From NCBI GenBank assembly GCA_964416445.1, contig CAYQEE010000005.1:52060-116059 (forward strand): DNA of 64,000 bases, read 5' to 3'. The notes under the pieces were generated by a model. It saw only the letters and a program-made list of their open reading frames with translations. It did not search any database and was not told the DNA's origin. Shown here one piece after another: positions 17,271-50,922 of the stretch. A program made the translations under genes and the position numbers. The DNA is from an uncultured Gammaproteobacteria bacterium (GTDB lineage: Bacteria > Patescibacteriota > Microgenomatia > Levybacterales > UBA12049). Each line of letters starts with the position of its first letter. The stretch's first letter is position 1.

Positions 17271-17333
17271 ATATTGTCAAAACGGAGATTCTAAAGATTA
17301 ACAAAAATAACCCTGAAAAAATCAGTTGAATTG

Positions 17334-17782
17334 TGGAGATGTCCGGCAATGAACCGGAGTCCAAGAAATTATTTGGAAACGTCTACAAGCATAGTTGATT
17401 TATTAATGTCGCTCTTTATAATTCCAGTCAACAGGATATAAAAAGCCTAAGGTTTATTAAAATAGCATAAGAAGCTAAACCAATTTTTCTTATGTTTTCT
17501 CAACTGGTTTATGCTCATATACTTTGTTGAGAAGTTAGGTATATGAACAGGACATCAATTAATGTAATTAATTGATATAAGCGGAAGCAAAAGATTGCTT
17601 TCGCATTGCAAAAGCACCTGCTACTAACATTCCTGCCTCAGAAAGAGGAAGGGCTGTTTTCTCAGCTGCTTTTCGCACCATGCCGAAATAATCAGCATTT
17701 AGTGTTTGATTTGTTTTACGACTACTATCAAAGTCGGCTTGCCGTTTATCAAAGTGCTCTCTTGTCGAATCAGTTCATCCCC
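17334..17782 (-). ncRNA. ssrA: tmRNA (ssrA)
   Basis: On the minus strand, immediately 3' of smpB. The 5' end GGGGATGAACTGATTCGACAAG matches the conserved tmRNA start (E. coli GGGGCUGAUUCUGGAUUCGACGGG). The 3' end is ..GGACTCCGGTTCATTGCCGGACATCTCC-A. That gives a T-arm (tccgg/ccgga with a 7-nt TTCAUUG loop) and a 7-bp acceptor stem pairing with the 5' end through a G3-U70 wobble, the alanine identity pair. The tag ORF was not resolved with confidence. One candidate is UAGUC-GUA AAA CAA AUC AAA CAC UAA. Confidence 0.8.
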
Positions 17783-36641: not shown

Positions 36642-37091
36642 ATGAAATGCCCATATTGCGGTAATAATCAAACTGAAGTAGTTGAAACACGAGATAATCA
36701 GGATTTAGGGATAATTCGTAGAAGACGATCATGCCTAAATTGTGCTAAACGGTTTACGACGTATGAACGAATAGAAAATGTTAATTTATACGTTATAAAG
36801 AAAGACGGAAGAAGAGAGCAATTTGATCGGGATAAAGTAAGAAAAGGATTGCTCACTGCTTGTGAAAAAACCAGAGTATCAGTCGATACCGTTGAGAAAA
36901 TTGTAACAGATCTAGAAAGAGATCTACGTAATCGAGATACGGTAGAAGTGAGAAGTAAAGATATTGGGGACATGATTGCAAAACGATTAAAGAAATTAGA
37001 TAAAGTAGCATATATTCGTTTTGCGAGTGTATTTAAGCGATTTGTGGATGTTGAAGATTTTGAAAAAGAAGTAAATAGGTTAATAAAATAA
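36642..37091 (+). CDS. nrdR: Transcriptional repressor NrdR
   Basis: MKCPYCGNNQTEVVETRDNQDLGIIRRRRSCLNCAKRFTTYERIE is the canonical NrdR zinc ribbon, followed by an ATP-cone. Confidence 0.95.
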   Translation: MKCPYCGNNQTEVVETRDNQDLGIIRRRRSCLNCAKRFTTYERIENVNLYVIKKDGRREQFDRDKVRKGLLTACEKTRVSVDTVEKIVTDLERDLRNRDTVEVRSKDIGDMIAKRLKKLDKVAYIRFASVFKRFVDVEDFEKEVNRLIK

Positions 37092-37094
37092 CAT

Positions 37095-39548
37095 ATGACA
37101 CAAGTAATACAAACAAAGCAAACCAACTTTGCAGGTACCTTACGAGAGAAAGTATTTTTAGATAGATATGCTTTAAAAGGTAAAGATGGTGAATTATTAG
37201 AACATACTCCTGAAGAAATGTGGGCTCGTGTTGCAAGAGGGATAGCAAAGAACGAAAAACTTGCGGTTCGCAATAAATGGGAAAAAGAATTTTATCGCGT
37301 TATGGAAGATTTCAAGTTTGTTCCTGGAGGAAGAATTAACTCGGGAGCAGGTACTGGATATCAAGTAACCTATTTTAATTGTTTTGTCATACCCTCACCA
37401 AAAGATTCTCGAGAAGGTATTCTTGAATCACTGAAGCAGTTAGTAGAAATTCAATCACGTTCGGGAGGAGTTGGATTAAACTTATCATCCCTTCGTCCTC
37501 GAGGTGCTCGCGTACGTAAAGTAAATGGAACGTCATCAGGTCCAGTAACCTGGGCTGGATTATTCTCATATGCAACACATGATGTGGTGCAACAAGGCGG
37601 TACGCGGAGAGGTGCAACTATGTTAATGCTTTGGGATTGGCATCCTGATATCGAAGAATTTATTACCGTAAAACAAGATTTGTCAAAAATTAATGGTGCT
37701 AACCTTTCGGTTTGTATTTCTGATGCCTTTATGGAAGCAGTAAAAAAAGATGCAGACTGGGATTTAGTTTATCCCGATTTGGACGATCCTCACTATGATG
37801 AAAAATGGAGTGGAGAAATTGATCAATGGAGAGCGATGGGTGGTAAAGTAAAAGTATATAAAACAATCAAAGCACGTGAATTGTGGGATTTGATTTGTAC
37901 AGCAGCGTGGAGATCAGCAGAACCTGGTCTTCATTTCTTGGAACGATCGAATAAACGTTCTAATACATGGTATTTTGAGCGTCTTGTCGCGACAAACCCT
38001 TGTGGTGAACAGCCGTTGGGGCCATGGGCAGTATGTAATTTAGGTGCAATGAACTTGTCAGCATATGTCAAAGATGCAGATCTTGCAAAAGGACAAGCTG
38101 GTTGGTTTGATTATGATTCTTTTGGAAAAGATGTTCGGGTCGCAATGCGTTTTCTTGATAATGTTATTGATCAAACATATTATTTCTTTAAAGAAAATGA
38201 AAAATGTGCAAAAGAAATTCGAAGAACCGGTCTTGGTATCATGGGACTTGGCGATACCCTCATTAAAATGCACTTGAAGTATGGAGGAGAAGATTCTGTG
38301 CCTGTCCTTGAAAAGATCTTTAAAACGCTTCGAGATAATGCCTATGAAGCCTCTTCTGATTTGGCAAAAGAAAAAGGAGCTTTCCCACAATTTGATAAAG
38401 AGAAATATTTGGAAGGATATCATATTAAGGCACTTTCTCCACAGCTTCGCAAAAAAATTATAACAAATGGCATTCGCAATGCAGTTCTCTTAACTATTGC
38501 TCCTACGGGAACGACCTCATTGGTATCAGGAGTGACATCAGGTATTGAACCTGTCTATGAATTTACCTTTATTCGGCGAGATCGGACAGGTGAGCATACG
38601 ATTTATCATCCATTATATGAACAATGGGAAGCTGCACATCCTGAAGAGGATCGACCAGAGTATTTTGTAAGTGCCAATGATTTAACACCACTCGAACATG
38701 CTCGTGTGCAAGCAGTAGCTCAGGAATATATTGATTCTTCTATTTCAAAAACGGTCAATGGGCCGAACAAGGACTCCATTGATGATGTGAAGAACTTATA
38801 CATGATGGCGTATGATATGGGATTAAAGGGAGTTACCTATATGCGTGATGGGTCTCGTCAAGGTGTATTAGAGCGGGTTGAGGAAAAGAAAGAGAAAAAA
38901 GAAGAAGTTCCAGCCATTCAACATCAGCCAGCTCTTCCAATTATGCCAATTATTTCTCGTCCACAACGTATAGAAGGTGCAACGTATGAAGCGAAAACTC
39001 CTGTTGGAGATACGTTTATCACTATTAACCATACTGATAATAAAGAACCATTTGAAGTATTTATTACGATCGGAAAATCCGGCTCAGACGTTGGTGCTAT
39101 GGCTGAAGCAATTGGTAGACTTATTTCTCTTAATTTACGTTCCAATAGTATGCTTCCACCTCGAGAGCGAGTAAGACAAATTGTTGCACAATTAACGGGG
39201 ATTGGTGGTGCACGAAGTGTTGGATTTGGGCCAAACAGAGTTCGATCTCTTCCTGATGCAATTGCAAAGGTGCTTTCACAACATTTTGATTTCTCTGTCA
39301 ACGGGAAAGTCGTTGATAAGACTGTGCTTCAACAATTTAACAATACCAATGGACATGCGGCGTCAGATAATGGTAGTAAGGCTTCATCTCATTCAGAAAA
39401 TGCAAAACAACTGCTTTTAGAAGGTGGACAAGAAACACTTCACGCGAGTACCAATATGTTTGATATTTGTCCAGAATGTGGTGTGAATAGCTTTGCTTAT
39501 GAAGAAGGTTGCAAAAAATGTTATAGTTGCGGTTATTCAGAGTGCTAG
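37095..39548 (+). CDS. nrdJ: Ribonucleotide reductase, class II (adenosylcobalamin-dependent)
   Basis: Active-site region VATNPCGEQPLGPWAVCNLGAMNL. The length and order fit monomeric class II RNR. A C-terminal Zn-ribbon CPECG...CKKCYSCGYSEC is present. Confidence 0.85.
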   Translation: MTQVIQTKQTNFAGTLREKVFLDRYALKGKDGELLEHTPEEMWARVARGIAKNEKLAVRNKWEKEFYRVMEDFKFVPGGRINSGAGTGYQVTYFNCFVIPSPKDSREGILESLKQLVEIQSRSGGVGLNLSSLRPRGARVRKVNGTSSGPVTWAGLFSYATHDVVQQGGTRRGATMLMLWDWHPDIEEFITVKQDLSKINGANLSVCISDAFMEAVKKDADWDLVYPDLDDPHYDEKWSGEIDQWRAMGGKVKVYKTIKARELWDLICTAAWRSAEPGLHFLERSNKRSNTWYFERLVATNPCGEQPLGPWAVCNLGAMNLSAYVKDADLAKGQAGWFDYDSFGKDVRVAMRFLDNVIDQTYYFFKENEKCAKEIRRTGLGIMGLGDTLIKMHLKYGGEDSVPVLEKIFKTLRDNAYEASSDLAKEKGAFPQFDKEKYLEGYHIKALSPQLRKKIITNGIRNAVLLTIAPTGTTSLVSGVTSGIEPVYEFTFIRRDRTGEHTIYHPLYEQWEAAHPEEDRPEYFVSANDLTPLEHARVQAVAQEYIDSSISKTVNGPNKDSIDDVKNLYMMAYDMGLKGVTYMRDGSRQGVLERVEEKKEKKEEVPAIQHQPALPIMPIISRPQRIEGATYEAKTPVGDTFITINHTDNKEPFEVFITIGKSGSDVGAMAEAIGRLISLNLRSNSMLPPRERVRQIVAQLTGIGGARSVGFGPNRVRSLPDAIAKVLSQHFDFSVNGKVVDKTVLQQFNNTNGHAASDNGSKASSHSENAKQLLLEGGQETLHASTNMFDICPECGVNSFAYEEGCKKCYSCGYSEC

Positions 39549-39577
39549 GATACAGTAGGCTGCCTCGTTGAACTTGT

Positions 39578-39964
39578 ATGCAACTTATTAAACATCATCG
39601 GATAGTTTTTTCTAGTGCAATCATCTTTCTTATTATTCTTGGTGTGTTTTCATTTGCTGTAGTAAAGCATGCAGCTTATACGGATGAGTCAATAACTTCT
39701 TTCTCAACAAGGAGTGTACAACAGACAAATATACTTACCTATAAAGGAAAAAATGGTATCGATGCACTAACTCTTTTAAAACAAACGGCCTCGATTACAC
39801 AAAATCAATCAGGATTCGTAATAGCTATTAATAATCGAGTTGCTAACGCATCACACCGCGAGTATTGGGAATTTTTTATTAATGGAAAATTAGCTACTGT
39901 TGGTCCAGCAAGTTATTTGACAAAAAATAATGATATACTTTCCTGGAAACTTGCTCGCTATTAA
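39578..39964 (+). CDS. Secreted DUF4430-like protein (possible cobalamin-binding/uptake accessory)
   Basis: Signal anchor, then GIDALTLLK...GFVIAINNRVANASHREYWEFFINGKLATVGPASYLTKNNDILSWKL. This matches the DUF4430 pattern as I remember it (…G.V.sInG……yW.yyvNG..a.vGas.y.lkdGD.I.w). Confidence 0.5.
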   Translation: MQLIKHHRIVFSSAIIFLIILGVFSFAVVKHAAYTDESITSFSTRSVQQTNILTYKGKNGIDALTLLKQTASITQNQSGFVIAINNRVANASHREYWEFFINGKLATVGPASYLTKNNDILSWKLARY

Positions 39965-39967
39965 CGT

Positions 39968-40531
39968 ATGAAAATTTACACGAAAACAGGTGATAAAGGG
40001 CAAACATCTCTTTTTGATGGAACAAGAGTTCCAAAAGATAACATACGAGTTGAAACCTATGGCACAATCGATGAGTTGAATAGTTCGATTGGAGTAGCCC
40101 TTGCACAATTACCAAAGTTAGCAACGCTCAATAAAATGAGAATAGTACTTAAAAATATTCAGCATGATCTTTTCGAAATTGGTGCAGTATTAGCAAATCC
40201 TCAGGAAGAACCATCTCCTCACATAAAGCAAGCGCTCTTAAAACATATTAGTAGTTTTGAAAACTTCATTGATGAGATGACCAATGAACTTCCTGAACTT
40301 ATGAATTTTATTCTTCCTGGGGGAAGTGTTTCTGGTGCAAATTTGCAACTTACTCGAGCAGTAAGTCGGCGAGTTGAACGAAACGTTATTGCTCTTTCAA
40401 AACAAGAGCGAGTTGAGCGAGAAATCATTATGTATTGTAACCGGCTATCAGATTTATTATTTACGATGAGTAGGTTTTGCAACTTTAAAGAAGGAAAGAA
40501 AGAAACCCCCTGGGAAAAACAGCTTGGGTAA
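39968..40531 (+). CDS. ATP:cob(I)alamin adenosyltransferase, PduO/MMAB type
   Basis: MKIYTKTGDKGQTSLFDGTRVPKDNIRVETYGTIDELNSSIG is the PduO-type N-terminal signature. Confidence 0.85.
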   Translation: MKIYTKTGDKGQTSLFDGTRVPKDNIRVETYGTIDELNSSIGVALAQLPKLATLNKMRIVLKNIQHDLFEIGAVLANPQEEPSPHIKQALLKHISSFENFIDEMTNELPELMNFILPGGSVSGANLQLTRAVSRRVERNVIALSKQERVEREIIMYCNRLSDLLFTMSRFCNFKEGKKETPWEKQLG

Positions 40532-40642
40532 AGCTATTTATCTCGTGTCACTACATAATAAAAGTTTTCTTATTCATTTGCAAAAGGAAAGAAAAGATGT
40601 ATGATAGGAAAACGAACTTTTCATTTATTTTTCTTCACTGCC

Positions 40643-43279
40643 ATGCAAGAATTTACTACTCCCATGATGAAGCAATACCAGGAGATAAAGAAGCAATATA
40701 AAGATTGTTTATTATTTTATCGAATGGGTGATTTTTATGAATTGTTTATGGATGATGCCTATATTGGTGCACAAGTGCTGAACATTACATTAACAGGGAG
40801 ACCAAAAGGCAAAGATGGACGAATACCAATGGCAGGAGTTCCTTATCACGCTGTTGATAGCTATCTTGCGAAGTTAGTTAAAGCAGGGTATAAAGTCGCA
40901 ATTTGCGAACAAGTCAGTCTTCCGAATAAGTATGGAATTATCGATCGCGAGGTAATTCGTATTGTTACACCAGGAACAGTTCTTGATGAAAAAGCTCTTG
41001 ATAAAAAGGATAATAACTACATAATCAGTCTCTTGGTTGAAAATGACATGATTGCAATCAGTACTGCTGATATTTCAACAGGATATTTCTCCTCAATACA
41101 AATGCATACTCGCAATGTTGAACAAACAATAAAAGATGAACTTTCTCGATTACATCCATCAGAATGTATCTTGTCTGAACAACTTTATAATACTCCTGAA
41201 ATTTTGCGATATTTAAAAACTGAAAATACAATGAGCATCTGTTGTTTTAAAGATTGGGAGAACTATGCAACATCAGCAAAGCAAATATTAAAGAAACATT
41301 TTGGTGTCTCAACATTAGCAAGTTTTGGTATTGAAGATAAGCCGCTACTGTTGCAAACAGCAGCTACTCTTTTGGGATATCTCCAAATGACTCAAAAAAC
41401 AACCGTTGGACATATTAAGAAAATTGTTGTTCATCATGCTGAAGATAGTATGATTTTAGATAAATCAACCGTGATTAATCTTGAATTATTTTCAACAATT
41501 CGTGAACATACGCTACAAGGAACATTACTTCATATTTTAGATCAAACAATCACCCCTATGGGTGGACGATTGTTAAAACAATGGATGAAAAAACCACTTA
41601 TTCATCGTGATGAAATTATCCAACGATATGAAGCTGTTGATGAATTTCTACAATACTCTCAAGAAAGATTTATGGTGCGAGAATCGTTGCAAGCAGTTAT
41701 TGATATTGAGCGCATCCTTTCTCGACTGTCTGTCAATATTGGAAATGCAAGAGATTTAATCAATTTAAAAACCTCATTGAAAACAATCTTACATGTGAAA
41801 AAGCTGCTACAAAATAGGGAAGCGAATCTGATTAAAAACGTAGCAGCAGGTATTTCGAATGACGTTACTACCGTTATTCAAGTTATTGAAAAAATGATTC
41901 TTGATGAACCCAAAATTGAATTGCGGGAAGGTGGACTGATGAAAAATGGTATTAACGCTGATCTGGATAAATTGAGGAAAATTGTTAAAGGGAGTAAAGA
42001 TTGGATAGTTAATTTAGAACGGAAAGAACGAGAAAGAACAGGTATTGCTTCTTTAAAAGTACGATTTAATCAAGTATTTGGTTTTTATATCGAAGTGAGT
42101 AAAGCAAATCTTCATAATATTCCTGAAAATTATATTCGCAAACAAACATTGGTAAACGGAGAACGATATATTACTCCAGAATTAAAAGAGCAAGAAGAGA
42201 TTATTTTAACTGCTGAAGAAAAAATTAATCAATTAGAATATGCACTATATCAAGACGTTTTACATTCCGTATTATCCTATACAGTTAGTTTACAAAAAGC
42301 AGCAGAAAGTATTGCTATTCTTGATTGTCTCTCAACGTTTTCAGAACTGGCAGAAAAAAATAGTTATATACGGCCAAATCTTGTATCAACAGGTGAGTTA
42401 ACGATTATTGGAGGACGACATCCTGTTGTTGAAAAGCTTTTGGAAGAGAATGAATTTGTTCCCAATGATGTAGCAGTTGACTCAATTAATCAACAATTGC
42501 TTCTTATTACTGGACCAAATATGGCAGGAAAATCGGTATTTATACGACAAGTTGCTTTAATAGTTTTTATGAGTCAGATCGGTTGTTTTGTTCCTGCAAA
42601 AGAAGCGACGATTAGTATTGCAGATCGTATTTTCGTTCGCAGTGGTGCATCCGATGTGATTACATCTGGTCTCTCTACATTTATGGTCGAAATGGTTGAA
42701 ACGGCGCATATCCTTCATCATGCGACAAAAAATAGTCTTATTATTATGGATGAAATTGGAAGAGGAACGAGTACGTATGATGGAATTAGTATTGCGTGGG
42801 CAGTCGCTGAGTATCTAGTTATAACAGAAGATATAGCTGCAAAAACTCTTTTTGCAACTCATTATCACGAACTACAATCGTTAGAAAAAGAATATCCAGG
42901 CAAGATAAAAAATTTTCATATGGCTGTTGCAGATGAGAAAGGGGAACCAATATTTCTCCATACCCTTGTTTCTGGAGGAGCATCTCACAGTTTTGGTGTC
43001 GCTGTTGCAAAACTTGCTGGTGTTCCTGATCCAGTAATCCAAAAAGCAACGGAAATATTACATATTCTTGAAAAAAGGCATATGGAAAATACCACAGAAC
43101 CTGAGACAATGGAACAATCGAGTACAGTCCATCTAGTGGACAAATTGTTACATAAAGAATTAGAAGATATTGATATTCATCAGACAACCCCTCTTGAAGC
43201 ATTAAATAAGTTAGCAGCGCTCAAAGAAAAACTCAAAGTATTTAAAGGAACACAAAGTAAATTTTTAGAGGTAGATTAA
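40643..43279 (+). CDS. mutS: DNA mismatch repair protein MutS
   Basis: TPMMKQYQEIKKQY..LFYRMGDFYELF (mismatch-binding domain). Walker A GPNMAGKS. Full MutS length. The start was taken at MQEF rather than the upstream track Met. Confidence 0.9.
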   Translation: MQEFTTPMMKQYQEIKKQYKDCLLFYRMGDFYELFMDDAYIGAQVLNITLTGRPKGKDGRIPMAGVPYHAVDSYLAKLVKAGYKVAICEQVSLPNKYGIIDREVIRIVTPGTVLDEKALDKKDNNYIISLLVENDMIAISTADISTGYFSSIQMHTRNVEQTIKDELSRLHPSECILSEQLYNTPEILRYLKTENTMSICCFKDWENYATSAKQILKKHFGVSTLASFGIEDKPLLLQTAATLLGYLQMTQKTTVGHIKKIVVHHAEDSMILDKSTVINLELFSTIREHTLQGTLLHILDQTITPMGGRLLKQWMKKPLIHRDEIIQRYEAVDEFLQYSQERFMVRESLQAVIDIERILSRLSVNIGNARDLINLKTSLKTILHVKKLLQNREANLIKNVAAGISNDVTTVIQVIEKMILDEPKIELREGGLMKNGINADLDKLRKIVKGSKDWIVNLERKERERTGIASLKVRFNQVFGFYIEVSKANLHNIPENYIRKQTLVNGERYITPELKEQEEIILTAEEKINQLEYALYQDVLHSVLSYTVSLQKAAESIAILDCLSTFSELAEKNSYIRPNLVSTGELTIIGGRHPVVEKLLEENEFVPNDVAVDSINQQLLLITGPNMAGKSVFIRQVALIVFMSQIGCFVPAKEATISIADRIFVRSGASDVITSGLSTFMVEMVETAHILHHATKNSLIIMDEIGRGTSTYDGISIAWAVAEYLVITEDIAAKTLFATHYHELQSLEKEYPGKIKNFHMAVADEKGEPIFLHTLVSGGASHSFGVAVAKLAGVPDPVIQKATEILHILEKRHMENTTEPETMEQSSTVHLVDKLLHKELEDIDIHQTTPLEALNKLAALKEKLKVFKGTQSKFLEVD

Positions 43280-43284
43280 TTTGT

Positions 43285-43737
43285 TTGTTTCTTGCTATTC
43301 AGGTAAATATTTTTTACAATTTTGATATGGTAGATCCACTCCAACCGAATACATCTTCCTTACAACAACCGACAGAACCTACCCCACCTGTTGCTCCACC
43401 AGCGTCTCATCCAAATCTTATCGTATTAATCATCTTTGCTATTATTCTTTTCGTTTTTTGTGGTGTAGGGTACATTTTATTACAAACACGCAAACCTTTT
43501 CCCCAAGCTGCTCAAACAGTTAATTCGCAATCTTCACCAACTCAGCCAATAATTGTTACACCCACTCCAGAGATTGTAGATACCGCACCTGGATTGCCAG
43601 CAAAGCAGAAGGCACAAGTTCAAATTCATCATTCTGACAGTACGTTTAGTACCTATCTTGTACCATTAACTAGTGTCTCCGCATATATTCACACATTACC
43701 CAAAGGTGATTCTGTTGTCAAAGTTGTAAACCCGTAA
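43285..43737 (+). CDS. Hypothetical Pro-rich membrane protein
   Basis: Pro/Thr-rich N-terminus, one TM (LIVLIIFAIILFVFCGVGYILL), then a short C-terminal domain. Start uncertain. Confidence 0.35.
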   Translation: MFLAIQVNIFYNFDMVDPLQPNTSSLQQPTEPTPPVAPPASHPNLIVLIIFAIILFVFCGVGYILLQTRKPFPQAAQTVNSQSSPTQPIIVTPTPEIVDTAPGLPAKQKAQVQIHHSDSTFSTYLVPLTSVSAYIHTLPKGDSVVKVVNP

Positions 43738-43794
43738 CAGCTTCTTAATTTCGTTGCATTTTTTATTTCGTGTATATTATGATGGAGCATACGT

Positions 43795-45498
43795 ATGAAA
43801 AAAATTCATCAGCTGTCTTTACCAGTTATTGCAAAAATAGCAGCAGGGGAAGTTATTGAACGTCCTGCATATGCAGTTAAAGAGCTTATTGAAAATGCAA
43901 TAGATGCGCATGCTAATTATATTACGATTCAAATTGAAGAAGCTGGACTGAAAAAGATTGTTGTAACTGATAATGGGGAAGGGATGGAAAAGGAAGATAT
44001 TCAAGAATGTTTTAAACCTCATACGACAAGTAAACTGAGCTCAGAAGAAGATTTGTTAGCAATTTCTTCACTCGGGTTCCGAGGGGAAGCACTTGCGAGT
44101 ATTGCAGCGATAAGTACGTTAACAATTAAAAGTAAATCTCTCAACGCAGTTGCAGGGACAATGATAAGAATTCATAATGGGAAGGTTTTGGAGGTGTTAC
44201 CAGTTGGTATGCCATCAGGAACAAGTATCCGAATTGATAACTTATTTTCTTCAGTTCCTGGAAGAAAGAAATTTTTAAAAAGCATCCGAACTGAATTTCG
44301 ACATATTGTTGATGTCGTAATGCATTATACTCTTGCTTACCCCACTATTCGATTTTTTCTCACGCATGATAAACGAATTATTTTAGATGCTCCCCCAAAT
44401 CAATCGATAGGAGAACGCATATCCTTAATACTCGGCAAACAAATATTTAATCAACTGATACCATTTTCTTATTCTGAAGAAAATATTACTCTTTCTGGTT
44501 TTATCTCACATCCACAACTGACGACGCAATCAACGCAAAAACAATATCTTTTTGTGAATAAACGGAGCGTCGTTGATCGACATATTAGTTCAATAATTAA
44601 AGAAGTGTATGGGAATCGTCTTGCTGCGACAACTTATCCTATCTATATCATTTTTTTGTCGATTCCTTTTGAGATGGTTGATGTCAATGTGCATCCTCGA
44701 AAAGAATATGTATTATTTGTTAATAGTGGCGTTGTTTCAGAACATATTGTAACTGCAATGAATCGTGCGCTTAATACTGTTCATGCTATTTTTTCGGCAC
44801 AATATAAAAATAGTGAACTTGTTCTGGGAGATAGTTTCCGTTCGGGGAACACCACTTCTTTTGCGGGAAGAACATTGAAAGAAGTTACGTCTCCTTGGCA
44901 ATTAAAAAGAGAGCTTCTCGATAGTACGTTAATCATGCAACTTCATAATGTTTATCTTGTTGTATCTACAAAATATGGCATGCTTTTGGTTGATCAACAT
45001 GCTGCTCATGAACGAATCCTGTATGAACAATATCAAAGAGCTTTTATTAAACAAAAGCAAAGCAAAAAAATCTTTACGTATTTAGAACCTATCCAATTTG
45101 AGGTTTCTCTGTCAGATGCAGAACTTGTTCAGGAACATAGAGCTCTTTTTACTACACTAGGATTTAATCTTGAACATTTCCACGATACAACATTTCTCTT
45201 GCGGAGTGTACCTTATCTTTTTCAAGATAGAGATTGTACGCAATTACTATTAGATGTTATTGACACTATTCGACAGGAAAAATCCACTGATGATATTGAT
45301 AAACAAACAAAACGAATGATTGCGTATCTTGCTTGTCGGAGTGCAGTGAAAGCAGGAGATAAACTTACTAGGGATGAGTCAAAAAACCTGATTGAACAGT
45401 TGGAAAAAACAGAAAATAATGCGACTTGTCCCCATGGAAGACCGACAAGAATCGAAATGCGACTTGAAGAACTACATAAAATTTTTAAGAGAAAATAG
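43795..45498 (+). CDS. mutL: DNA mismatch repair protein MutL
   Basis: IAAGEVIERPAYAVKELIENAIDA (GHKL ATPase). The C-terminal endonuclease region includes ACR..GDKL and CPHGRP. Confidence 0.9.
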   Translation: MKKIHQLSLPVIAKIAAGEVIERPAYAVKELIENAIDAHANYITIQIEEAGLKKIVVTDNGEGMEKEDIQECFKPHTTSKLSSEEDLLAISSLGFRGEALASIAAISTLTIKSKSLNAVAGTMIRIHNGKVLEVLPVGMPSGTSIRIDNLFSSVPGRKKFLKSIRTEFRHIVDVVMHYTLAYPTIRFFLTHDKRIILDAPPNQSIGERISLILGKQIFNQLIPFSYSEENITLSGFISHPQLTTQSTQKQYLFVNKRSVVDRHISSIIKEVYGNRLAATTYPIYIIFLSIPFEMVDVNVHPRKEYVLFVNSGVVSEHIVTAMNRALNTVHAIFSAQYKNSELVLGDSFRSGNTTSFAGRTLKEVTSPWQLKRELLDSTLIMQLHNVYLVVSTKYGMLLVDQHAAHERILYEQYQRAFIKQKQSKKIFTYLEPIQFEVSLSDAELVQEHRALFTTLGFNLEHFHDTTFLLRSVPYLFQDRDCTQLLLDVIDTIRQEKSTDDIDKQTKRMIAYLACRSAVKAGDKLTRDESKNLIEQLEKTENNATCPHGRPTRIEMRLEELHKIFKRK

Positions 45499-45534
45499 TA
45501 GTAGCGTATTTAGCAATAATTCACACTACCAGTA

Positions 45535-45711
45535 TTGTTCTCTTTGCAAAAATACGTTATAATTTTTTTATCAGAATTCCGAAGTCTGTGAAACTCAGAC
45601 GCTGTACCGCAACCGTTATAGTCGGGTCGCAGATTTTGGTGGGTATCACACGATCCTCGAGTTAAGGATGCGTCAAGAAAGGAACCTTCTCGATTAGGAG
45701 AAGGTTTTTTT
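45535..45711 (+). promoter_or_regulatory. Promoter plus ~140-nt structured leader ending in an intrinsic terminator (candidate attenuator or riboswitch)
   Basis: TTGTTC (45535-40), a 17-nt spacer, TATAAT (45558-63). The transcript should start near 45570. The terminator is CCTTCTC-gattag-GAGAAGG (45685-45704) followed by TTTTTTT (45705-11). The downstream ATG (45722) lies 11 nt after the T-run, with no room for another promoter. Confidence 0.55.
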
Positions 45712-45721
45712 GTGGAAAATT

Positions 45722-47617
45722 ATGTTTAATGAATCACCCAGGAGACAACAAACAGCAACACTTACTCGAAATGCCCAGATGATTGGTCTTTATCTTAATC
45801 TTTATAGAGTTCCTCTCAACAGGCCAGGTATAGCTCTTCCCAGATCACAAGAGGCAAGGCAGGATTTAATAGATGGTGGATTTACACCCGAACAGCAACA
45901 AATATTACAAAGACAACGATTACAATTTCGCGAAAACTATTTGACGATCGATGGCTCTCATGATCAATTGCCCCTACCATCTCATTCGCCGTTATTCACT
46001 GATGGACAATGGCAGCATTATGAGAAAATGCGAGAACAATATAGGTATGGATTATATGATACGGTACAAACTGCTTCTCCGACAGACACCTCGCAATTTA
46101 CCCAAGAACAATTAGAAAAGTTAGTAGAGCTACGAAATCAAATACGAAGAAGTACTCGTAATGAATTTGCGGGTGATATTTCACAAATTAAACAGTTACG
46201 AAAACAATGTGAAGCTGCAGGTATTACCTTTATTAAAAAAAATGAAGATGGAACAAATCAAAAAATAGCGTATGATCCTATCTTAGATGTCTTTAATTTA
46301 TTTAAAATACAGGCAGAAAATCCCAGTGCATTGAAAGATTTTCGTCGGGAAATCATCAAAAATTCAATTACAAATTTATTAGAACGGTATCGTTCAGATA
46401 GAAGTGTGCATCGATTTCAATTAAAAGAGGGAAAATTATTTTCAGAATATTTTCAAAACGAACCTTTTACAAAAATTATCGCTCGAGGAATTAGCCATCT
46501 TCAAGAAGAAGGATCATTAACACAAATACGCGAGAGAAGAGAATTAGAAGGATTTGAATGGAAGGAAAGATATCTTCAAGCCGCACCGATTGGAGCGATG
46601 GTGCTGTTTCTTTCTCCACCATACTTGGAGCGATATCCCGAAAAATTTGTTGATATCTCGATAAAAAAACAAGATCATCTCACCGGAGAAACATATATTG
46701 AAGAAATTCGGTTTAAATATGATAGCTTAACAGCTCATGATTATTGGAATATTGCCACAAGGCTTGATCCACGGTATTTTGATGGATTTATACCACCTTC
46801 TCTTGATGCAAATCCTAATGAGGTCATGACGCTTGATGCATGGTGCGTTGGAAAAGGAATTCCCATTGTGGGAGAATCTCCAGATGCAGTATTTAAATCA
46901 TTAATTGGATCAATTGATCCAGAAAAAGAAGCAAAGATAGATTTTATTTTAAAATGTTCAGAACATCCAATATTTGATTTCTATCTTCCAAGTTTGTTAG
47001 AATCACGATTTACAGCGAAGCAAGATTGGATACGATTAGGCAAAGCTTTTCAATCAATATTAACTTTCTCTCAAAATGCAAGAGATTTATATGATACTTA
47101 TGGTAATAATCATACAGTCTTGGATAGAATGGATTTTGAGACTGCAAAAAAACATGTCTATGCATATATTCAGAGTCAAAAGCATAAATCAGTAAGTAAT
47201 CTTGCTCTTCCGAATACAGTGGACATTTCTTATGAAAGGTATCTTCAACAGAAATTACCTCCAACACAGTTTCAAATGGATACGTTAAGCAAATTACAAG
47301 CAGAGGAGCTTGCTATTGGATGTGGAAGATCTGGGAATGTCCTTATTAATGAAGGTACTAATACTGTTTCTCAAGAAATGGAATCTCGAGCAATGGGTAG
47401 CCTTAATAGATTAAATAAATATAACACTTCGAAAGTGGTAAACAAAGAAAAGTCAGGAAGTAAAGAATCTGAATTATTCCAGTGTCCAGAATGTAATCAA
47501 TATTTTGTTCCTCCTGTTGGGGAATCATGTCCACCAAATAAATTGTCTATCGAAGGTTTCCTTGGATGTGGATATAGTAAAAAAGAAGCTATCGCTCAAG
47601 GAGCGGCTGTTTGTTAA
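45722..47617 (+). CDS. Large hypothetical protein (632 aa from ATG 45722) with a C-terminal Cys-cluster (zinc-ribbon-like)
   Basis: Long ORF (the track uses a TTG at 45710). The C-terminus carries FQCPECNQYF...SCPPNKLSIEGFLGCGYS. No recognisable enzymatic motif. Confidence 0.55.
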   Translation: MFNESPRRQQTATLTRNAQMIGLYLNLYRVPLNRPGIALPRSQEARQDLIDGGFTPEQQQILQRQRLQFRENYLTIDGSHDQLPLPSHSPLFTDGQWQHYEKMREQYRYGLYDTVQTASPTDTSQFTQEQLEKLVELRNQIRRSTRNEFAGDISQIKQLRKQCEAAGITFIKKNEDGTNQKIAYDPILDVFNLFKIQAENPSALKDFRREIIKNSITNLLERYRSDRSVHRFQLKEGKLFSEYFQNEPFTKIIARGISHLQEEGSLTQIRERRELEGFEWKERYLQAAPIGAMVLFLSPPYLERYPEKFVDISIKKQDHLTGETYIEEIRFKYDSLTAHDYWNIATRLDPRYFDGFIPPSLDANPNEVMTLDAWCVGKGIPIVGESPDAVFKSLIGSIDPEKEAKIDFILKCSEHPIFDFYLPSLLESRFTAKQDWIRLGKAFQSILTFSQNARDLYDTYGNNHTVLDRMDFETAKKHVYAYIQSQKHKSVSNLALPNTVDISYERYLQQKLPPTQFQMDTLSKLQAEELAIGCGRSGNVLINEGTNTVSQEMESRAMGSLNRLNKYNTSKVVNKEKSGSKESELFQCPECNQYFVPPVGESCPPNKLSIEGFLGCGYSKKEAIAQGAAVC

Positions 47618-47626
47618 AATATACAT

Positions 47627-47791
47627 ATGGAAACAAAAATTGCTTGTCATGATTGTTTTCAAATTATATGTAAGCAGTGTGGCTGGATTGCCACACCGGA
47701 AGATGTTATAATGATTCAACAAGGAAAGGTGACTGCTTGTCCTCTCTGTGGATGGAAACCACAACCATCACAAGAAAAGCGTACATTATAA
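47627..47791 (+). CDS. 54-aa triple-CxxC zinc-ribbon mini-protein (not in ORF track)
   Basis: METKIACHDCFQIICKQCGWIATPEDVIMIQQGKVTACPLCGWKPQPSQEKRTL. It has CHDC, CKQC and CPLC motifs. It starts 10 nt after the upstream stop. Confidence 0.45.
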   Translation: METKIACHDCFQIICKQCGWIATPEDVIMIQQGKVTACPLCGWKPQPSQEKRTL

Positions 47792-47840
47792 ACATTTTGT
47801 AAGGATTATTTCATTGTCATAGATTCTGCAAGATGGTATC

Positions 47841-48431
47841 ATGAATCATATGGGTACAACAACAAACCAGCAAGATCAATCGAATCAAACATCGCAAGGG
47901 AATACTATTGTTGAATTTCCTGATTTCAATACTGTTGCTAAAACACCAACGACACATCCCCTTGGACCAATGCCAGTAGTAAAAACTCCAACTCCAACTC
48001 CAACTCCAACTCCAACTCCAACTCCAACTCCAACTCCAACTAGTCAACCTACGAGCAGTTCAATTCAGAAGGAACTCGAACCAATGCCATCATTGATAGC
48101 AAAACCTGACATAATACACGAAACTGAACATGTTGTTGAGCTTGTTCCAGAAGTGAAAGCAGCAGGAGTGGAAGCTGTTTCAACTATTCCACAGTTAACA
48201 TTAGAAGAAAAAAAGATTGGTGTAGAATTAGCAAAGGAAGCAGCATTAGAGGAAAAGAAATTAGAGCCTGATTTAAAAGCACCAATATCAAAAATGGAGG
48301 CAGAAAAAATAACGAAAGGACAATTACTCTTTAAGGATACTTCAAATCCCATGTTGTGGCTAGCGATGCTTCTTTTGAGACAGATTCAAATTTTAACTAG
48401 ACAAAAACAGTCTAAAGAGAAAAAAATATGA
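47841..48431 (+). CDS. (TP)n-repeat protein with a charged helical middle and hydrophobic C-terminal segment
   Basis: 196 aa. [21 protein letters not shown] is encoded by a perfect (ACTCCA)n array. Then an E/K-rich region. Then a C-terminal LWLAMLLLRQIQIL. Its stop overlaps the next start (ATATGA). Confidence 0.55.
   Translation: MNHMGTTTNQQDQSNQTSQGNTIVEFPDFNTVAKTPTTHPLGPMPVVKTPTPTPTPTPTPTPTPTPTSQPTSSSIQKELEPMPSLIAKPDIIHETEHVVELVPEVKAAGVEAVSTIPQLTLEEKKIGVELAKEAALEEKKLEPDLKAPISKMEAEKITKGQLLFKDTSNPMLWLAMLLLRQIQILTRQKQSKEKKI
47985..48035 (+). repeat. Hexanucleotide microsatellite (ACTCCA)x8.5 encoding (TP)n
   Basis: A perfect tandem array read directly from the sequence. In-frame repeat length changes would alter the linker length without a frameshift. 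Confidence 0.9.
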
Positions 48432-50806
48432 TACCTGATCAATTATTTACCCCACAGGGGATGATAACCCTTTTTACTATTTTATCCGTCATTATTCTTA
48501 GTACTGTAGGAATTGGATTTTTGCTAATTTTTGGAGGATATTTACTCTTCTTGTATTATAAATATCGAGATCGAGAAAAAATCTCATTAGAGTCGACGCT
48601 CCTGTTAGTTGCGTTACCTCGAGATAATGAAATTAAAATAGATGCCGCAGAGCAAATGTTTGCTGGATTTGCTTCTATTCGTAAAAGCGGCAGGTTTGCA
48701 TTTCTTAATCCGCAACCACATATTTCCTTTGAAATCGTAGGGACACCTGGTGACATTCGGTTCTATGTTCATACGCCAAATAAATTACGTGATTTAGTAG
48801 AAAAGCAAATTAACGGAACGTATCCTGAAGCTGATATCCGTGTAGTTACTGCCGATGATCCGAAACAAAAAAATATCATTGGCAATGAATATAACTTCTT
48901 TAATGAAAACGGTAAAGTCGCATTTGCTCCTCTTAAATTAAAAGGTGCTTCGTATTCTCCGATTCGAATCTTTAAAGATTTGCCGGTAGATGGGTTATCC
49001 CTTATCACTTCAGTACTTGCAAAAATGGGTGAGGGAGAAGGCGCTGCCATCCAGATTCTTGTAAGTCCAGCAGATCCGAAATGGAAGAAATTAGGGCGAA
49101 AGTTTATTGCACGAACAAAAAAAGCAGAGTCAAATCCCGAAACAGCAAAATATGCAACAGATCCAAAAGAATTAGAGGGAATTGAAAATAAAATTAGTAA
49201 ACCAGGATTTAATGTTACCATTCGTGTTGTTGTTTGCTCTCCTAATAAAGAAATGGCTGATGCTCATTTAAGCAACATCCTGAGTGCTTATGGACAATTT
49301 AATGCAGCAAACTCATTTAAAAAAATGAAACCATTGTTAAAGAATTTGCTTGTCAAAGATTTTGTCTATCGTTTCTGGCCAATGCGCGGACAAACGTCTA
49401 TTATGACCAGTGAAGAGCTAGCAACAATTTTTCATTTCCCCAATAAAAGTATTACCACTCCTCAAATTTTTTGGTTAACTTCAAAGAGAGCACCTGCTCC
49501 TGCACAGATCTCAACTACTGGACTATATATTGGGAAAAGTATTTTTAGAGGTATTACAAAACCTGTTCATATTGGTCTGGATGATCGACGTCGGCATATG
49601 TATATTATCGGAAAAACAGGTACTGGAAAATCCGAGTTTTTGAAAGATATGATCCTGCAGGATATCCAAAATGGGGAGGGAGTTTGTGTAATTGATCCTC
49701 ACGGTGATTTAGTTGAAGGAATTCTTCCTCGAGTTCCTGCAAAGCGCGCTGAAGATGTTATTATTTTTGACCCTTCTGATACTTCTCGTCCAATGGGGTT
49801 AAATATTATGGAGGCTGATACTGAAGAACAACGACATTATGTCGTATCGTCCATTATTGGGCTATTTTATAAGTTATATGATCCAAACAATACTGGTATT
49901 GTTGGTCCTCGTTTAGAGCATGGTATTCGAAATGCAATGTTAACATGTATGTGTGAACCTGGTTCTACTTTTATTGAGGTCCAACGCGCATTGACAGATT
50001 CTGCTTTTGTACAAGAGATTCTCCCGAAGGTCACGGATCCAATTATCCGTAGATATTGGACAGATCAAATAGCGCAAACAAGCGACTTCCACAAATCGGA
50101 GGTACTTGACTATATTGTCTCTAAATTCGGTCGTTTTGTTACCAATAAGTTGATGCGTAATATTATTGGTCAATCGAAAAGTGCTTTTCAGTTCAGAGAG
50201 ATTATGGATCAACAAAAAATACTATTAGTTAATTTATCAAAAGGAAAAGTTGGAGAGGAAAACTCTAACTTTCTTGGATTGATTCTCGTTCCAAAGATTC
50301 TTGTTGCTGCAATGAGTAGACAAGATATTCCGCAAGATCAACGTAAAGACTTTTTCCTCTATGTTGATGAATTTCAGAATTTTGCAACACCTGATTTTGC
50401 CGTTATTCTTTCAGAAGCTCGTAAATATCGATTAAATCTTATTGTTGCAAATCAGTTTACTGGACAGATGCAGGAAGAAGTTAAAAATGCTGTTTTTGGT
50501 AACGTTGGATCCATTGTCTCCTTCCGTGTCGGTGTTCAGGATGCAAACTATTTACAACACGAGTTTCAACCCACCTTTAATGAGGGAGATTTAATTAACA
50601 TAGATAGATATAACGCGTATATGCGAACTCTTGTCAATGGAGAACCAGTGAGTCCTTTCTCTGTCGATATGACGCGAGATATGACAAAAGAAAAAGCATT
50701 GGAAAATCCTCGAATCGCAGAATTAATCAAAGAGCTCTCTCGATTGAAATACGCGAAAGACGTTAAACAAGTTGAGGTTGAAATTTCCACTCGTGCAAAA
50801 CTTTAA
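48428..50806 (+). CDS. Membrane-anchored FtsK/HerA/TraG-superfamily P-loop ATPase, most similar in layout to type IV coupling proteins (VirD4/TraG/TrwB-like)
   Basis: A 33-aa N-terminal hydrophobic hairpin, then a ~330-aa domain. Walker A IIGKTGTGKSEFL is followed by VCVIDPHGDL and FDPSD..GLNIME. Walker B LYVDEFQNF lies about 250 aa later. That long spacing fits T4CP with an all-alpha insertion, not the FtsK motor. Start coupled to the upstream gene. Confidence 0.6.
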   Translation: MIPDQLFTPQGMITLFTILSVIILSTVGIGFLLIFGGYLLFLYYKYRDREKISLESTLLLVALPRDNEIKIDAAEQMFAGFASIRKSGRFAFLNPQPHISFEIVGTPGDIRFYVHTPNKLRDLVEKQINGTYPEADIRVVTADDPKQKNIIGNEYNFFNENGKVAFAPLKLKGASYSPIRIFKDLPVDGLSLITSVLAKMGEGEGAAIQILVSPADPKWKKLGRKFIARTKKAESNPETAKYATDPKELEGIENKISKPGFNVTIRVVVCSPNKEMADAHLSNILSAYGQFNAANSFKKMKPLLKNLLVKDFVYRFWPMRGQTSIMTSEELATIFHFPNKSITTPQIFWLTSKRAPAPAQISTTGLYIGKSIFRGITKPVHIGLDDRRRHMYIIGKTGTGKSEFLKDMILQDIQNGEGVCVIDPHGDLVEGILPRVPAKRAEDVIIFDPSDTSRPMGLNIMEADTEEQRHYVVSSIIGLFYKLYDPNNTGIVGPRLEHGIRNAMLTCMCEPGSTFIEVQRALTDSAFVQEILPKVTDPIIRRYWTDQIAQTSDFHKSEVLDYIVSKFGRFVTNKLMRNIIGQSKSAFQFREIMDQQKILLVNLSKGKVGEENSNFLGLILVPKILVAAMSRQDIPQDQRKDFFLYVDEFQNFATPDFAVILSEARKYRLNLIVANQFTGQMQEEVKNAVFGNVGSIVSFRVGVQDANYLQHEFQPTFNEGDLINIDRYNAYMRTLVNGEPVSPFSVDMTRDMTKEKALENPRIAELIKELSRLKYAKDVKQVEVEISTRAKL

Positions 50807-50849
50807 CTTTTCTTTCGTATTCGCTTTTGCTACAATGCAGATTACTTGA

Positions 50850-50922
50850 GGGCCAGTAGTTCAGCGGCTAGAACATCTATCTTATACATAGAATGTCGAA
50901 GGTTCGAGTCCTCCCTGGCCCA
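50850..50922 (+). tRNA. tRNA-Ile with anticodon UAU (reads AUA)
   Basis: Acceptor GGGCCAG/CTGGCCC-A. D-stem gttc/gaac. Anticodon stem tctat/ataga with loop cTTATAc (U33, A37). T-loop TTCGAGT. 73 nt. A TACAAT -10-like box lies upstream. Confidence 0.8.

Follow-up and report, generated by a model that had tools for sequence, protein, structure and literature searches.

The window (the entire 64-kb stretch of DNA analysed here) carries a structured leader immediately ahead of a large open reading frame, hereafter gene X, with genes of vitamin B12-dependent metabolism located 5–8 kb upstream (NrdJ and PduO) and two further genes located downstream. The genes and the elements of the leader are as follows.

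36642–37091, + strand: NrdR (NCBIfam TIGR00244)
37095–39548, + strand: NrdJ, AdoCbl-dependent ribonucleotide reductase (TIGR02504, 578 bits, cut-off 400)
39968–40531, + strand: PduO-type adenosyltransferase (TIGR00636, 191 bits, cut-off 108)
45535–45563, + strand: putative sigma-70-type promoter, TTGTTC (45535–45540), 17-nt spacer, TATAAT (45558–45563)
45569–45578, + strand: 5' strand of the P1/P3 closing helix, UAUCAGAAUU, pairing with 45632–45641
45579–45583, + strand: junction J3/4, CCGAA, invariant in the subtype alignments (G/U-GAA in canonical relatives)
45584–45600, + strand: P4 (GUCUG/CAGAC) with a T-loop-type L4 (UGAAACU; Rfam consensus GUGAAAxUC), four of the five pairs covarying
45603–45611, + strand: P5/L5, with L5 bases A45606, C45607, C45608 and G45609 engaged in the kissing loop
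45613–45625, + strand: P6 (CCG/CGG) with L6 (UUAUAGU) and the conserved AGUC core, by the Rfam alignment
45626–45631, + strand: junction J6/3, GUCGCA, 6 nt as against 3–4 nt in canonical relatives
45632–45641, + strand: 3' strand of the P1/P3 closing helix, GAUUUUGGUG, pairing with 45569–45578
45642–45652, + strand: linker, in which relatives may form a small hairpin that overlaps P1 at its end and P13 at its start
45653–45669, + strand: P13 hairpin, AUCCU/AGGAU, with loop L13 CGAGUUA (45658–45664), three of the five stem pairs covarying
45658–45667, + strand: candidate antiterminator strand, CGAG-UU-AAGG, complementary to the terminator 5' arm CCUUCUCG (45685–45692)
45683–45711, + strand: intrinsic terminator, 9-bp stem AACCUUCUC (45683–45691) / GAGAAGGUU (45698–45706), loop GAUUAG, U7 (45705–45711)
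45710–47617, + strand: gene X, the ORF that the leader would regulate, 635 aa from UUG 45710 or 631 aa from ATG 45722 (the start given by gene callers)
45712–45729, + strand: five-codon ORF, GUG GAA AAU UAU GUU UAA, out of frame with gene X and overlapping ATG 45722
47841–48431, + strand: 196-aa protein downstream of gene X, possibly co-transcribed
48428–50806, + strand: 792-aa DUF8128/DUF87 VirD4-like ATPase, possibly co-transcribed

A 128-aa ORF on the same strand separates the NrdJ and PduO genes, and an insertion of mutS, a 150-aa ORF and mutL separates PduO from the leader. A terminator scan of the gap that follows gene X (47618–47840) found none, the nearest one (47592–47606) being located inside the 3' end of gene X. 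Elsewhere in the window, on the minus strand, a tmRNA (17331–17782) measures 452 nt against a 374-position model and, thus, contains a large insertion, as does, similarly, the tmRNA of a related locus (L005).

The putative promoter combines a perfect −10 box with a −35 box that matches TTGACA at three of six positions, and this partial match is the reason for its absence from a consensus-scan listing. Its boxes are those named in the original prediction, and it predicts, from the letters of the boxes and their spacing, a transcript start at approximately 45569–45570 (the prediction named 45570), where P1 begins. A similar arrangement (TTGTTG-17-TATGAT) is found at an equal distance from the structure in L003, the most closely related leader, and a comparison among the remaining relatives gave no convincing conservation of the promoter. 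The predicted transcript does begin with a structured leader that ends in a hairpin and U7 directly before the ORF: the fold of the whole leader (45569–45711) has z = −2.68 relative to shuffled sequences, with 2 of 200 shuffles being equally good. The 7-bp stem originally described is the core of this terminator (four of its pairs being G-C), the full stem having 9 bp. The spacing of 11 nt to the start codon holds for ATG 45722, whereas the in-frame UUG 45710 falls inside the U-tract and relatives start 0–2 nt after it. The location of a terminator so close to the ORF supports the view that expression of gene X depends on read-through. A terminator scan listed solely the minus-strand mirror of this hairpin, and the plus-strand one was probably missed because the extension of the stem consumes the U-run. 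A Shine-Dalgarno-like sequence, GGAGAAGG (45697–45704, with GGAG at 45697–45700), is contained within the terminator loop and 3' arm.

The start of gene X is uncertain. Most directly comparable in the relatives is an AUG, GUG or UUG followed by GAA, 0–2 nt after the U-tract; its counterpart in the window, GUG 45712, is out of frame, and UUG 45710 and ATG 45722 are the in-frame candidates. The five-codon ORF opened by this GUG could represent translational coupling or an old frameshift.

The leader had been described as an unassigned riboswitch or attenuator candidate, by reference to a list of classes that omitted cobalamin. The Rfam scan does assign it: positions 45569–45635 match RF01689 (AdoCbl-II) at 39.3 bits (gathering threshold 36.5 bits, E = 7.6e-6 for the 64 kb), a margin of just 2.8 bits. 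In this alignment, the P4/L4, P5 and P6/L6 core is matched well, P1 is poor and P3 is deleted. The idea of a riboswitch thus survives and its novelty is lost, since related genomes retain the leader and the assigned family is a known cis-regulator, not a housekeeping small RNA unrelated to the downstream gene. The riboswitch reading is also borne out by the hallmarks of the cobalamin family, which are present and covarying, and by a gene context that fits cobalamin. Altogether, we regard the leader as, with high probability, a cobalamin (vitamin B12) riboswitch of class II that turns the following gene off, with corrinoid binding, the direction of switching and the antiterminator being what we infer. 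The element probably derives from a genome of Patescibacteria. The window contains no second copy of this element over its 64 kb.

The aptamer (45569–45641, 73 nt) is a four-way junction of P3, P4, P5 and P6 with a short P5. Bases U45569–U45578 are continuously paired with G45632–G45641 over 10 bp, so that P1 and P3 form one 10-bp helix without a J1/3 internal loop; this continuous helix, read from the sequence and borne out by comparison across leaders, supersedes the P1 and the deleted P3 of the Rfam alignment. Compensatory changes are found in eight of its ten pairs among 29 leaders and in seven of ten in a smaller set of 10 sequences. The hairpin GUCUG-UGAAACU-CAGAC noted earlier is real (45584–45600) and constitutes P4 with L4, whereas the second hairpin then proposed, GGGUCGCAGAUUUUGGUGGG, is composed of junction J6/3 and the 3' strand of the closing helix and forms no hairpin of its own. 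P5 is invariant across leaders and hence uninformative for covariation; in P6, one of three pairs is compensatory, the middle pair switching between C-G and G-C. The L4 sequence UGUGAAACUCA and the L6 sequence UAUAGUC align to the RF01689 consensus elements GUGAAAxUC and AGUC, respectively, and a docking of L4 with L6 is putative. A competing minimum-energy fold, in which a 13-bp helix (45579–45591 with 45627–45639) destroys P4, was rejected as the functional fold: over 10 leaders it is 79% paired, the same as shuffles (430/500), without real covariation. It may be a misfold adopted in the absence of ligand, or just a by-product of the conserved sequence.

Downstream of the aptamer, almost every related leader has CGAG at the start of L13. 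One base of L5 varies (X in CUGU-X-CCGCAAC) and covaries with the base that follows this CGAG, which establishes the pairing of XCCG in L5 with CG(A)GY in L13. In the window, the kissing pairs are C45658-G45609, G45659-C45608, G45661-C45607 and U45662-A45606, with A45660 bulged out. In a broad set, the variable pair is G-C in 52 leaders, C-G in 17, A-U in 7, G-U in 3 and some other combination in 6, i.e., pairing-compatible in 79 of 85 informative leaders; among 29 subtype leaders it is G-C in 15, A-U in 13 (as for A45606-U45662 in the window), G-U in one and unpaired in none. Cobalamin-dependent regulation through an L5–L13 switch has been described (PMC6158498), and every cobalamin class has the junction and the kissing loop (PMC7367189). 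For the linker hairpin of relatives, folds of transcription intermediates predict a weak equivalent in the window (G45632–U45635 with G45652–C45655).

These comparisons used 29–34 related leaders overall, including a set of 10 aptamers and a set of 29 leaders with P13 appended. The four-helix structure is paired in 98.1% of cells over the 10 aptamers and has 11 compensatory pairs; none of 500 shuffles was as good, and slid controls reached at most 51% paired. Over the 29 leaders, the structure with P13 and the kissing loop is paired in 98.6% of cells and shows 17 compensatory pairs, as against no more than 55% pairing in slid controls, in an alignment that concatenates the aptamer with a P13 hairpin chosen by a script to maximise flanking complementarity. 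The invariance of P5, P6 and the junctions is by construction, since the retrieval patterns fix many core bases, and the positions left free to vary are those of P1/P3, P4, P13 and one kissing pair only. Covariation among orthologous leaders, the check proposed with the original prediction, nevertheless yields compensatory changes in P1/P3, P4, P6, P13 and the kissing pair, and the secondary structure is established accordingly.

Searching species-representative genomes with a degenerate pattern of the aptamer core yielded 120 loci, mostly of Patescibacteria with some Actinomycetota, Chloroflexota and Bacteriovoracaceae. The peculiarities of the window (a CC before GAA, a J6/3 of the form GUCGMA and a continuous closing helix) are common to 10 leaders, and a subtype-specific pattern added 28 metagenome stretches (24 unique). 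With a covariance model trained on the 10 aptamers, independent metagenome members score 78–99 bits and ordinary class-II aptamers of Patescibacteria no more than 61 bits, a gap by which the subtype is discrete under this model. Only 6 of 20 subtype members reach the Rfam gathering score of any model, and two of the relatives (L129 and L072) score best with RF01482. In L003, the leader is nearly identical to that of the window, with a closing helix changed in compensatory fashion. Within the library searched, no relevant paper was found on cobalamin riboswitches from either Patescibacteria or the candidate phyla radiation. As a separate observation, several metagenome-assembled genomes labelled "uncultured Gammaproteobacteria" (TPA_asm; L011, L032, L083, L093, L094 and others) carry a Patescibacteria-type leader, gene X-like proteins and the ATPase, and this label looks wrong for them.

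The related leaders are consistently found in a B12 gene context, preceding PduO, DUF4430, DUF6580 or BtuF-like (Peripla_BP_2) genes, or homologues of gene X, which themselves adjoin PduO. Within the subtype, the leaders of L072, L101 and several metagenome loci are located directly before PduO (Cob_adeno_trans) genes, and that of L099 precedes an operon of a prenyltransferase-like protein, a DUF6580 protein and a BtuF-like binding protein (Peripla_BP_2). Two cobalamin riboswitches within 1–2 kb, one before uptake/PduO genes and the other before gene X, occur in many Patescibacteria loci (e.g., L129, L139, L156 and L157); further pairs are located at 410–487 and 1186–1264 in L005 and at 836–914 and 2858–2934 in L006. 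A literature search on DUF4430 and DUF6580 returned nothing relevant.

Downstream of the riboswitch, the order of the 196-aa protein and the ATPase is kept in 15 of 16 loci. Five additional loci (L155–L159) were retrieved via the 792-aa ATPase alone, independently of the riboswitch, and all five share with the window (36642–50922) an island with the order NrdR (where the locus reaches that far), NrdJ, optional DUF4430/DUF6580, PduO and optional gene X, continuing with a 140–196-aa protein, the ~790-aa DUF8128/DUF87 ATPase and a tRNA and, further downstream, an integrase and DivIC. In L156 and L157, riboswitches precede the uptake/PduO genes and, separately, gene X. In L155 and L159 no riboswitch was detected, and the sole riboswitch of L158 is on the strand opposite the ATPase; as the ATPase thus occurs in three loci without a riboswitch able to govern it, we do not claim it as B12-regulated. 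The ATPase is very strongly conserved: identity is 70% or higher among the 120 top-scoring clusters, from a total exceeding 7,000 with E ≤ 1e-30. Source annotations label it as a DNA-binding protein of type IV secretion or as a DUF87 protein, and its fixed position beside B12 genes is unexplained.

Gene X had appeared to be an orphan in a word-indexed search, which matched only the protein itself; this was set aside upon an exhaustive HMMER search, which returned 125 distant relatives. The contigs of four of these relatives were checked, and a cobalamin-clan riboswitch is located directly upstream in all four. The family is fast-evolving, and the homologue behind the nearly identical leader of L003 has only 34% identity to the window protein. 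Gene X and its relatives gave no match in Pfam or NCBIfam. The AlphaFold2 model has a core (residues 150–460) with pLDDT above 90. A Foldseek search of the PDB with this model found no significant match, with E-values of 0.1 or worse and query-normalised TM-scores of at most 0.14. The protein has conserved SPPG and GCG motifs as well as CxxC motifs near the C-terminus. We offer only tentatively, and with more doubt than confidence, the broader interpretation that a discrete, Patescibacteria-restricted class-II subtype (no J1/3, CCGAA in J3/4, a 6-nt J6/3), mostly missed by Rfam and maybe with a corrinoid selectivity of its own, controls an island-inserted gene X that is an unrecognised corrinoid-handling or acquisition protein of host-dependent bacteria.

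With regard to the mechanism, the B12-bound state is the off state in the usual logic of cobalamin riboswitches. In the proposed scheme, a bound corrinoid would let L5 (ACCG) kiss L13 (CG-A-GU), holding P13 closed; the terminator would then form and transcription would stop at U7, and in any mRNA that reads through in the presence of ligand the ribosome-binding site would be buried in the hairpin. Without ligand, L13 and the 3' arm of P13 would pair with the terminator 5' arm CCUUCUCG, the terminator would be blocked and the gene would be transcribed and translated. The anti-terminator pairing sought in the original prediction can indeed be found (45658–45667 with 45685–45692), with modest support in the window. 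There, it comprises 8 bp with a 2-nt bulge and a duplex energy of −8.0 vs. −5.1 kcal/mol for shuffles, 11.7% of which are as good, the terminator being far more stable at a predicted −13.2 kcal/mol. Across the family, the duplex averages −9.4 vs. −5.7 kcal/mol for shuffles, with p ≤ 0.05 in 14 of 32 leaders, and some leaders have a contiguous 10-bp helix; this support was obtained once the terminator loop was included in the pairing target, the 5' arm alone having failed to outperform shuffles (mean z = −0.37). When the transcript is folded as an intermediate, before the terminator 3' arm emerges, the antiterminator pairing is part of the minimum-energy structure in ~6 of 9 leaders, the window included.

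The position of GGAGAAGG in the loop and 3' arm, together with the starts of relatives 0–2 nt after the U-tract, implies that the hairpin should also hide the ribosome-binding site. That the hairpin chiefly sequesters this site, with termination at U7 minor or absent, is an alternative to which we assign a limited though appreciable chance. The GGAG of the window (45697–45700) is within the hairpin, the start codon is located 0–2 nt past the U-tract in ~26 of 32 related leaders, and the class-IIa prototype env8 controls translation via L13 (PMC6158498). Nevertheless, a stem of 9 bp with U7 behind it makes a canonical intrinsic terminator, of a design kept across the subtype, and a dual mechanism would be compatible with the main explanation, i.e., a terminating OFF switch. 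Salvage and uptake genes are normally B12-repressed, and the regulated neighbours in relatives are genes of this type. Since, in addition, a P13 and kissing loop stabilised by ligand would exclude the antiterminator and not the terminator, an ON switch in which B12 binding promotes read-through is very unlikely, even with an activating corrinoid riboswitch on record (PMC10327014).

The remaining two alternatives dispute what is being sensed. A change of ligand, to a non-corrinoid, might be read into the lack of J1/3, which is a key determinant of class-II selectivity (PMC6158498), into the longer J6/3, and into the discrete cluster of scores with just 6 of 20 subtype leaders reaching the gathering score. 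It is, however, very unlikely in view of the retained core junction, L4, L6 and L5–L13 features, of subtype leaders located directly before cobalamin adenosyltransferase genes and DUF6580/BtuF-like operons, and of a paired J1/3 being already known in the AdoCbl-binding class IIb (PMC7367189). The marginal Rfam score and the tiny ORF overlapping the start region could likewise suggest a ligand-independent attenuator, operated by a protein or a ribosome (e.g., on the five-codon ORF at 45712–45729), with a fortuitous Rfam match. The ORF is positioned downstream of the terminator and, therefore, cannot control it, whereas all variable helices and the kissing loop covary and the linkage to B12 genes is consistent over dozens of loci, which leaves this reading scarcely credible and the cobalamin OFF switch as the preferred one.

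As an RNA, this leader adds little, being one more cobalamin riboswitch detectable by a standard Rfam scan. Its value is rather in the biology to which it leads. Patescibacteria are unable to synthesise B12, yet an AdoCbl-dependent ribonucleotide reductase is encoded in the window and in all five ATPase-anchored relatives (L155–L159). Corrinoid acquisition and processing in Patescibacteria are poorly known, and the riboswitch flags the uncharacterised and rapidly diverging gene X family as probably B12-regulated in bacteria that rely on other organisms for B12. This family sits in a conserved island beside a PduO adenosyltransferase and a near-universal VirD4-like ATPase. Misalignment of the subtype by the Rfam model, and the failure of that model to detect most members, matter for the annotation of Patescibacteria genomes.

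Among known systems, the leader belongs to the cobalamin clan CL00101 and, having neither a P2 arm nor a P6 extension, to class II. Class I (RF00174/RF01482; Thermoanaerobacter tengcongensis and, as a variant, Bacillus subtilis yvrC) shares with it the clan, the core junction and the kissing loop, whereas the P2 arm and the P7–P11 extension of P6 that characterise class I are absent from the leader and would not fit in a 73-nt aptamer. Many class-I cobalamin riboswitches in Gram-positive bacteria use transcription terminators.

The matched family, RF01689 AdoCbl-II (formerly AdoCbl-variant), represents class IIa with env8 as its prototype (PDB 4FRN/4FRG). The P3–P6 four-way junction, the GUGAAAxUC of L4 and the AGUC of L6 are common to both, as are the lack of a P6 extension and a P2 arm and the use of an L5–L13 kissing loop as the regulatory switch (PMC6158498). 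In contrast to class IIa, P1 and P3 are continuous in the window and the J1/3 internal T-loop, which contacts J6/3 in class IIa, is absent both here and in all 29 subtype leaders; J3/4 is CCGAA, J6/3 has 6 nt (GUCGCA) and L5 has 3 nt. The output differs as well, consisting of an intrinsic terminator whose 3' arm holds the ribosome-binding site, whereas in class IIa this site is inside P13. Because of the uninterrupted 10-bp P1/P3 helix, the leader should not be filed as class IIa. The AdoCbl-selective class IIb, compared here by its description, has a paired or mismatched J1/3 that resembles the continuous helix of the window (PMC7367189), and a short P6 hairpin extension, in contrast to the P6 of the window, which has 3 bp and a 7-nt loop as in class IIa. 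The AdoCbl metabolism genes of the locus (PduO and NrdJ) would agree with sensing of AdoCbl.
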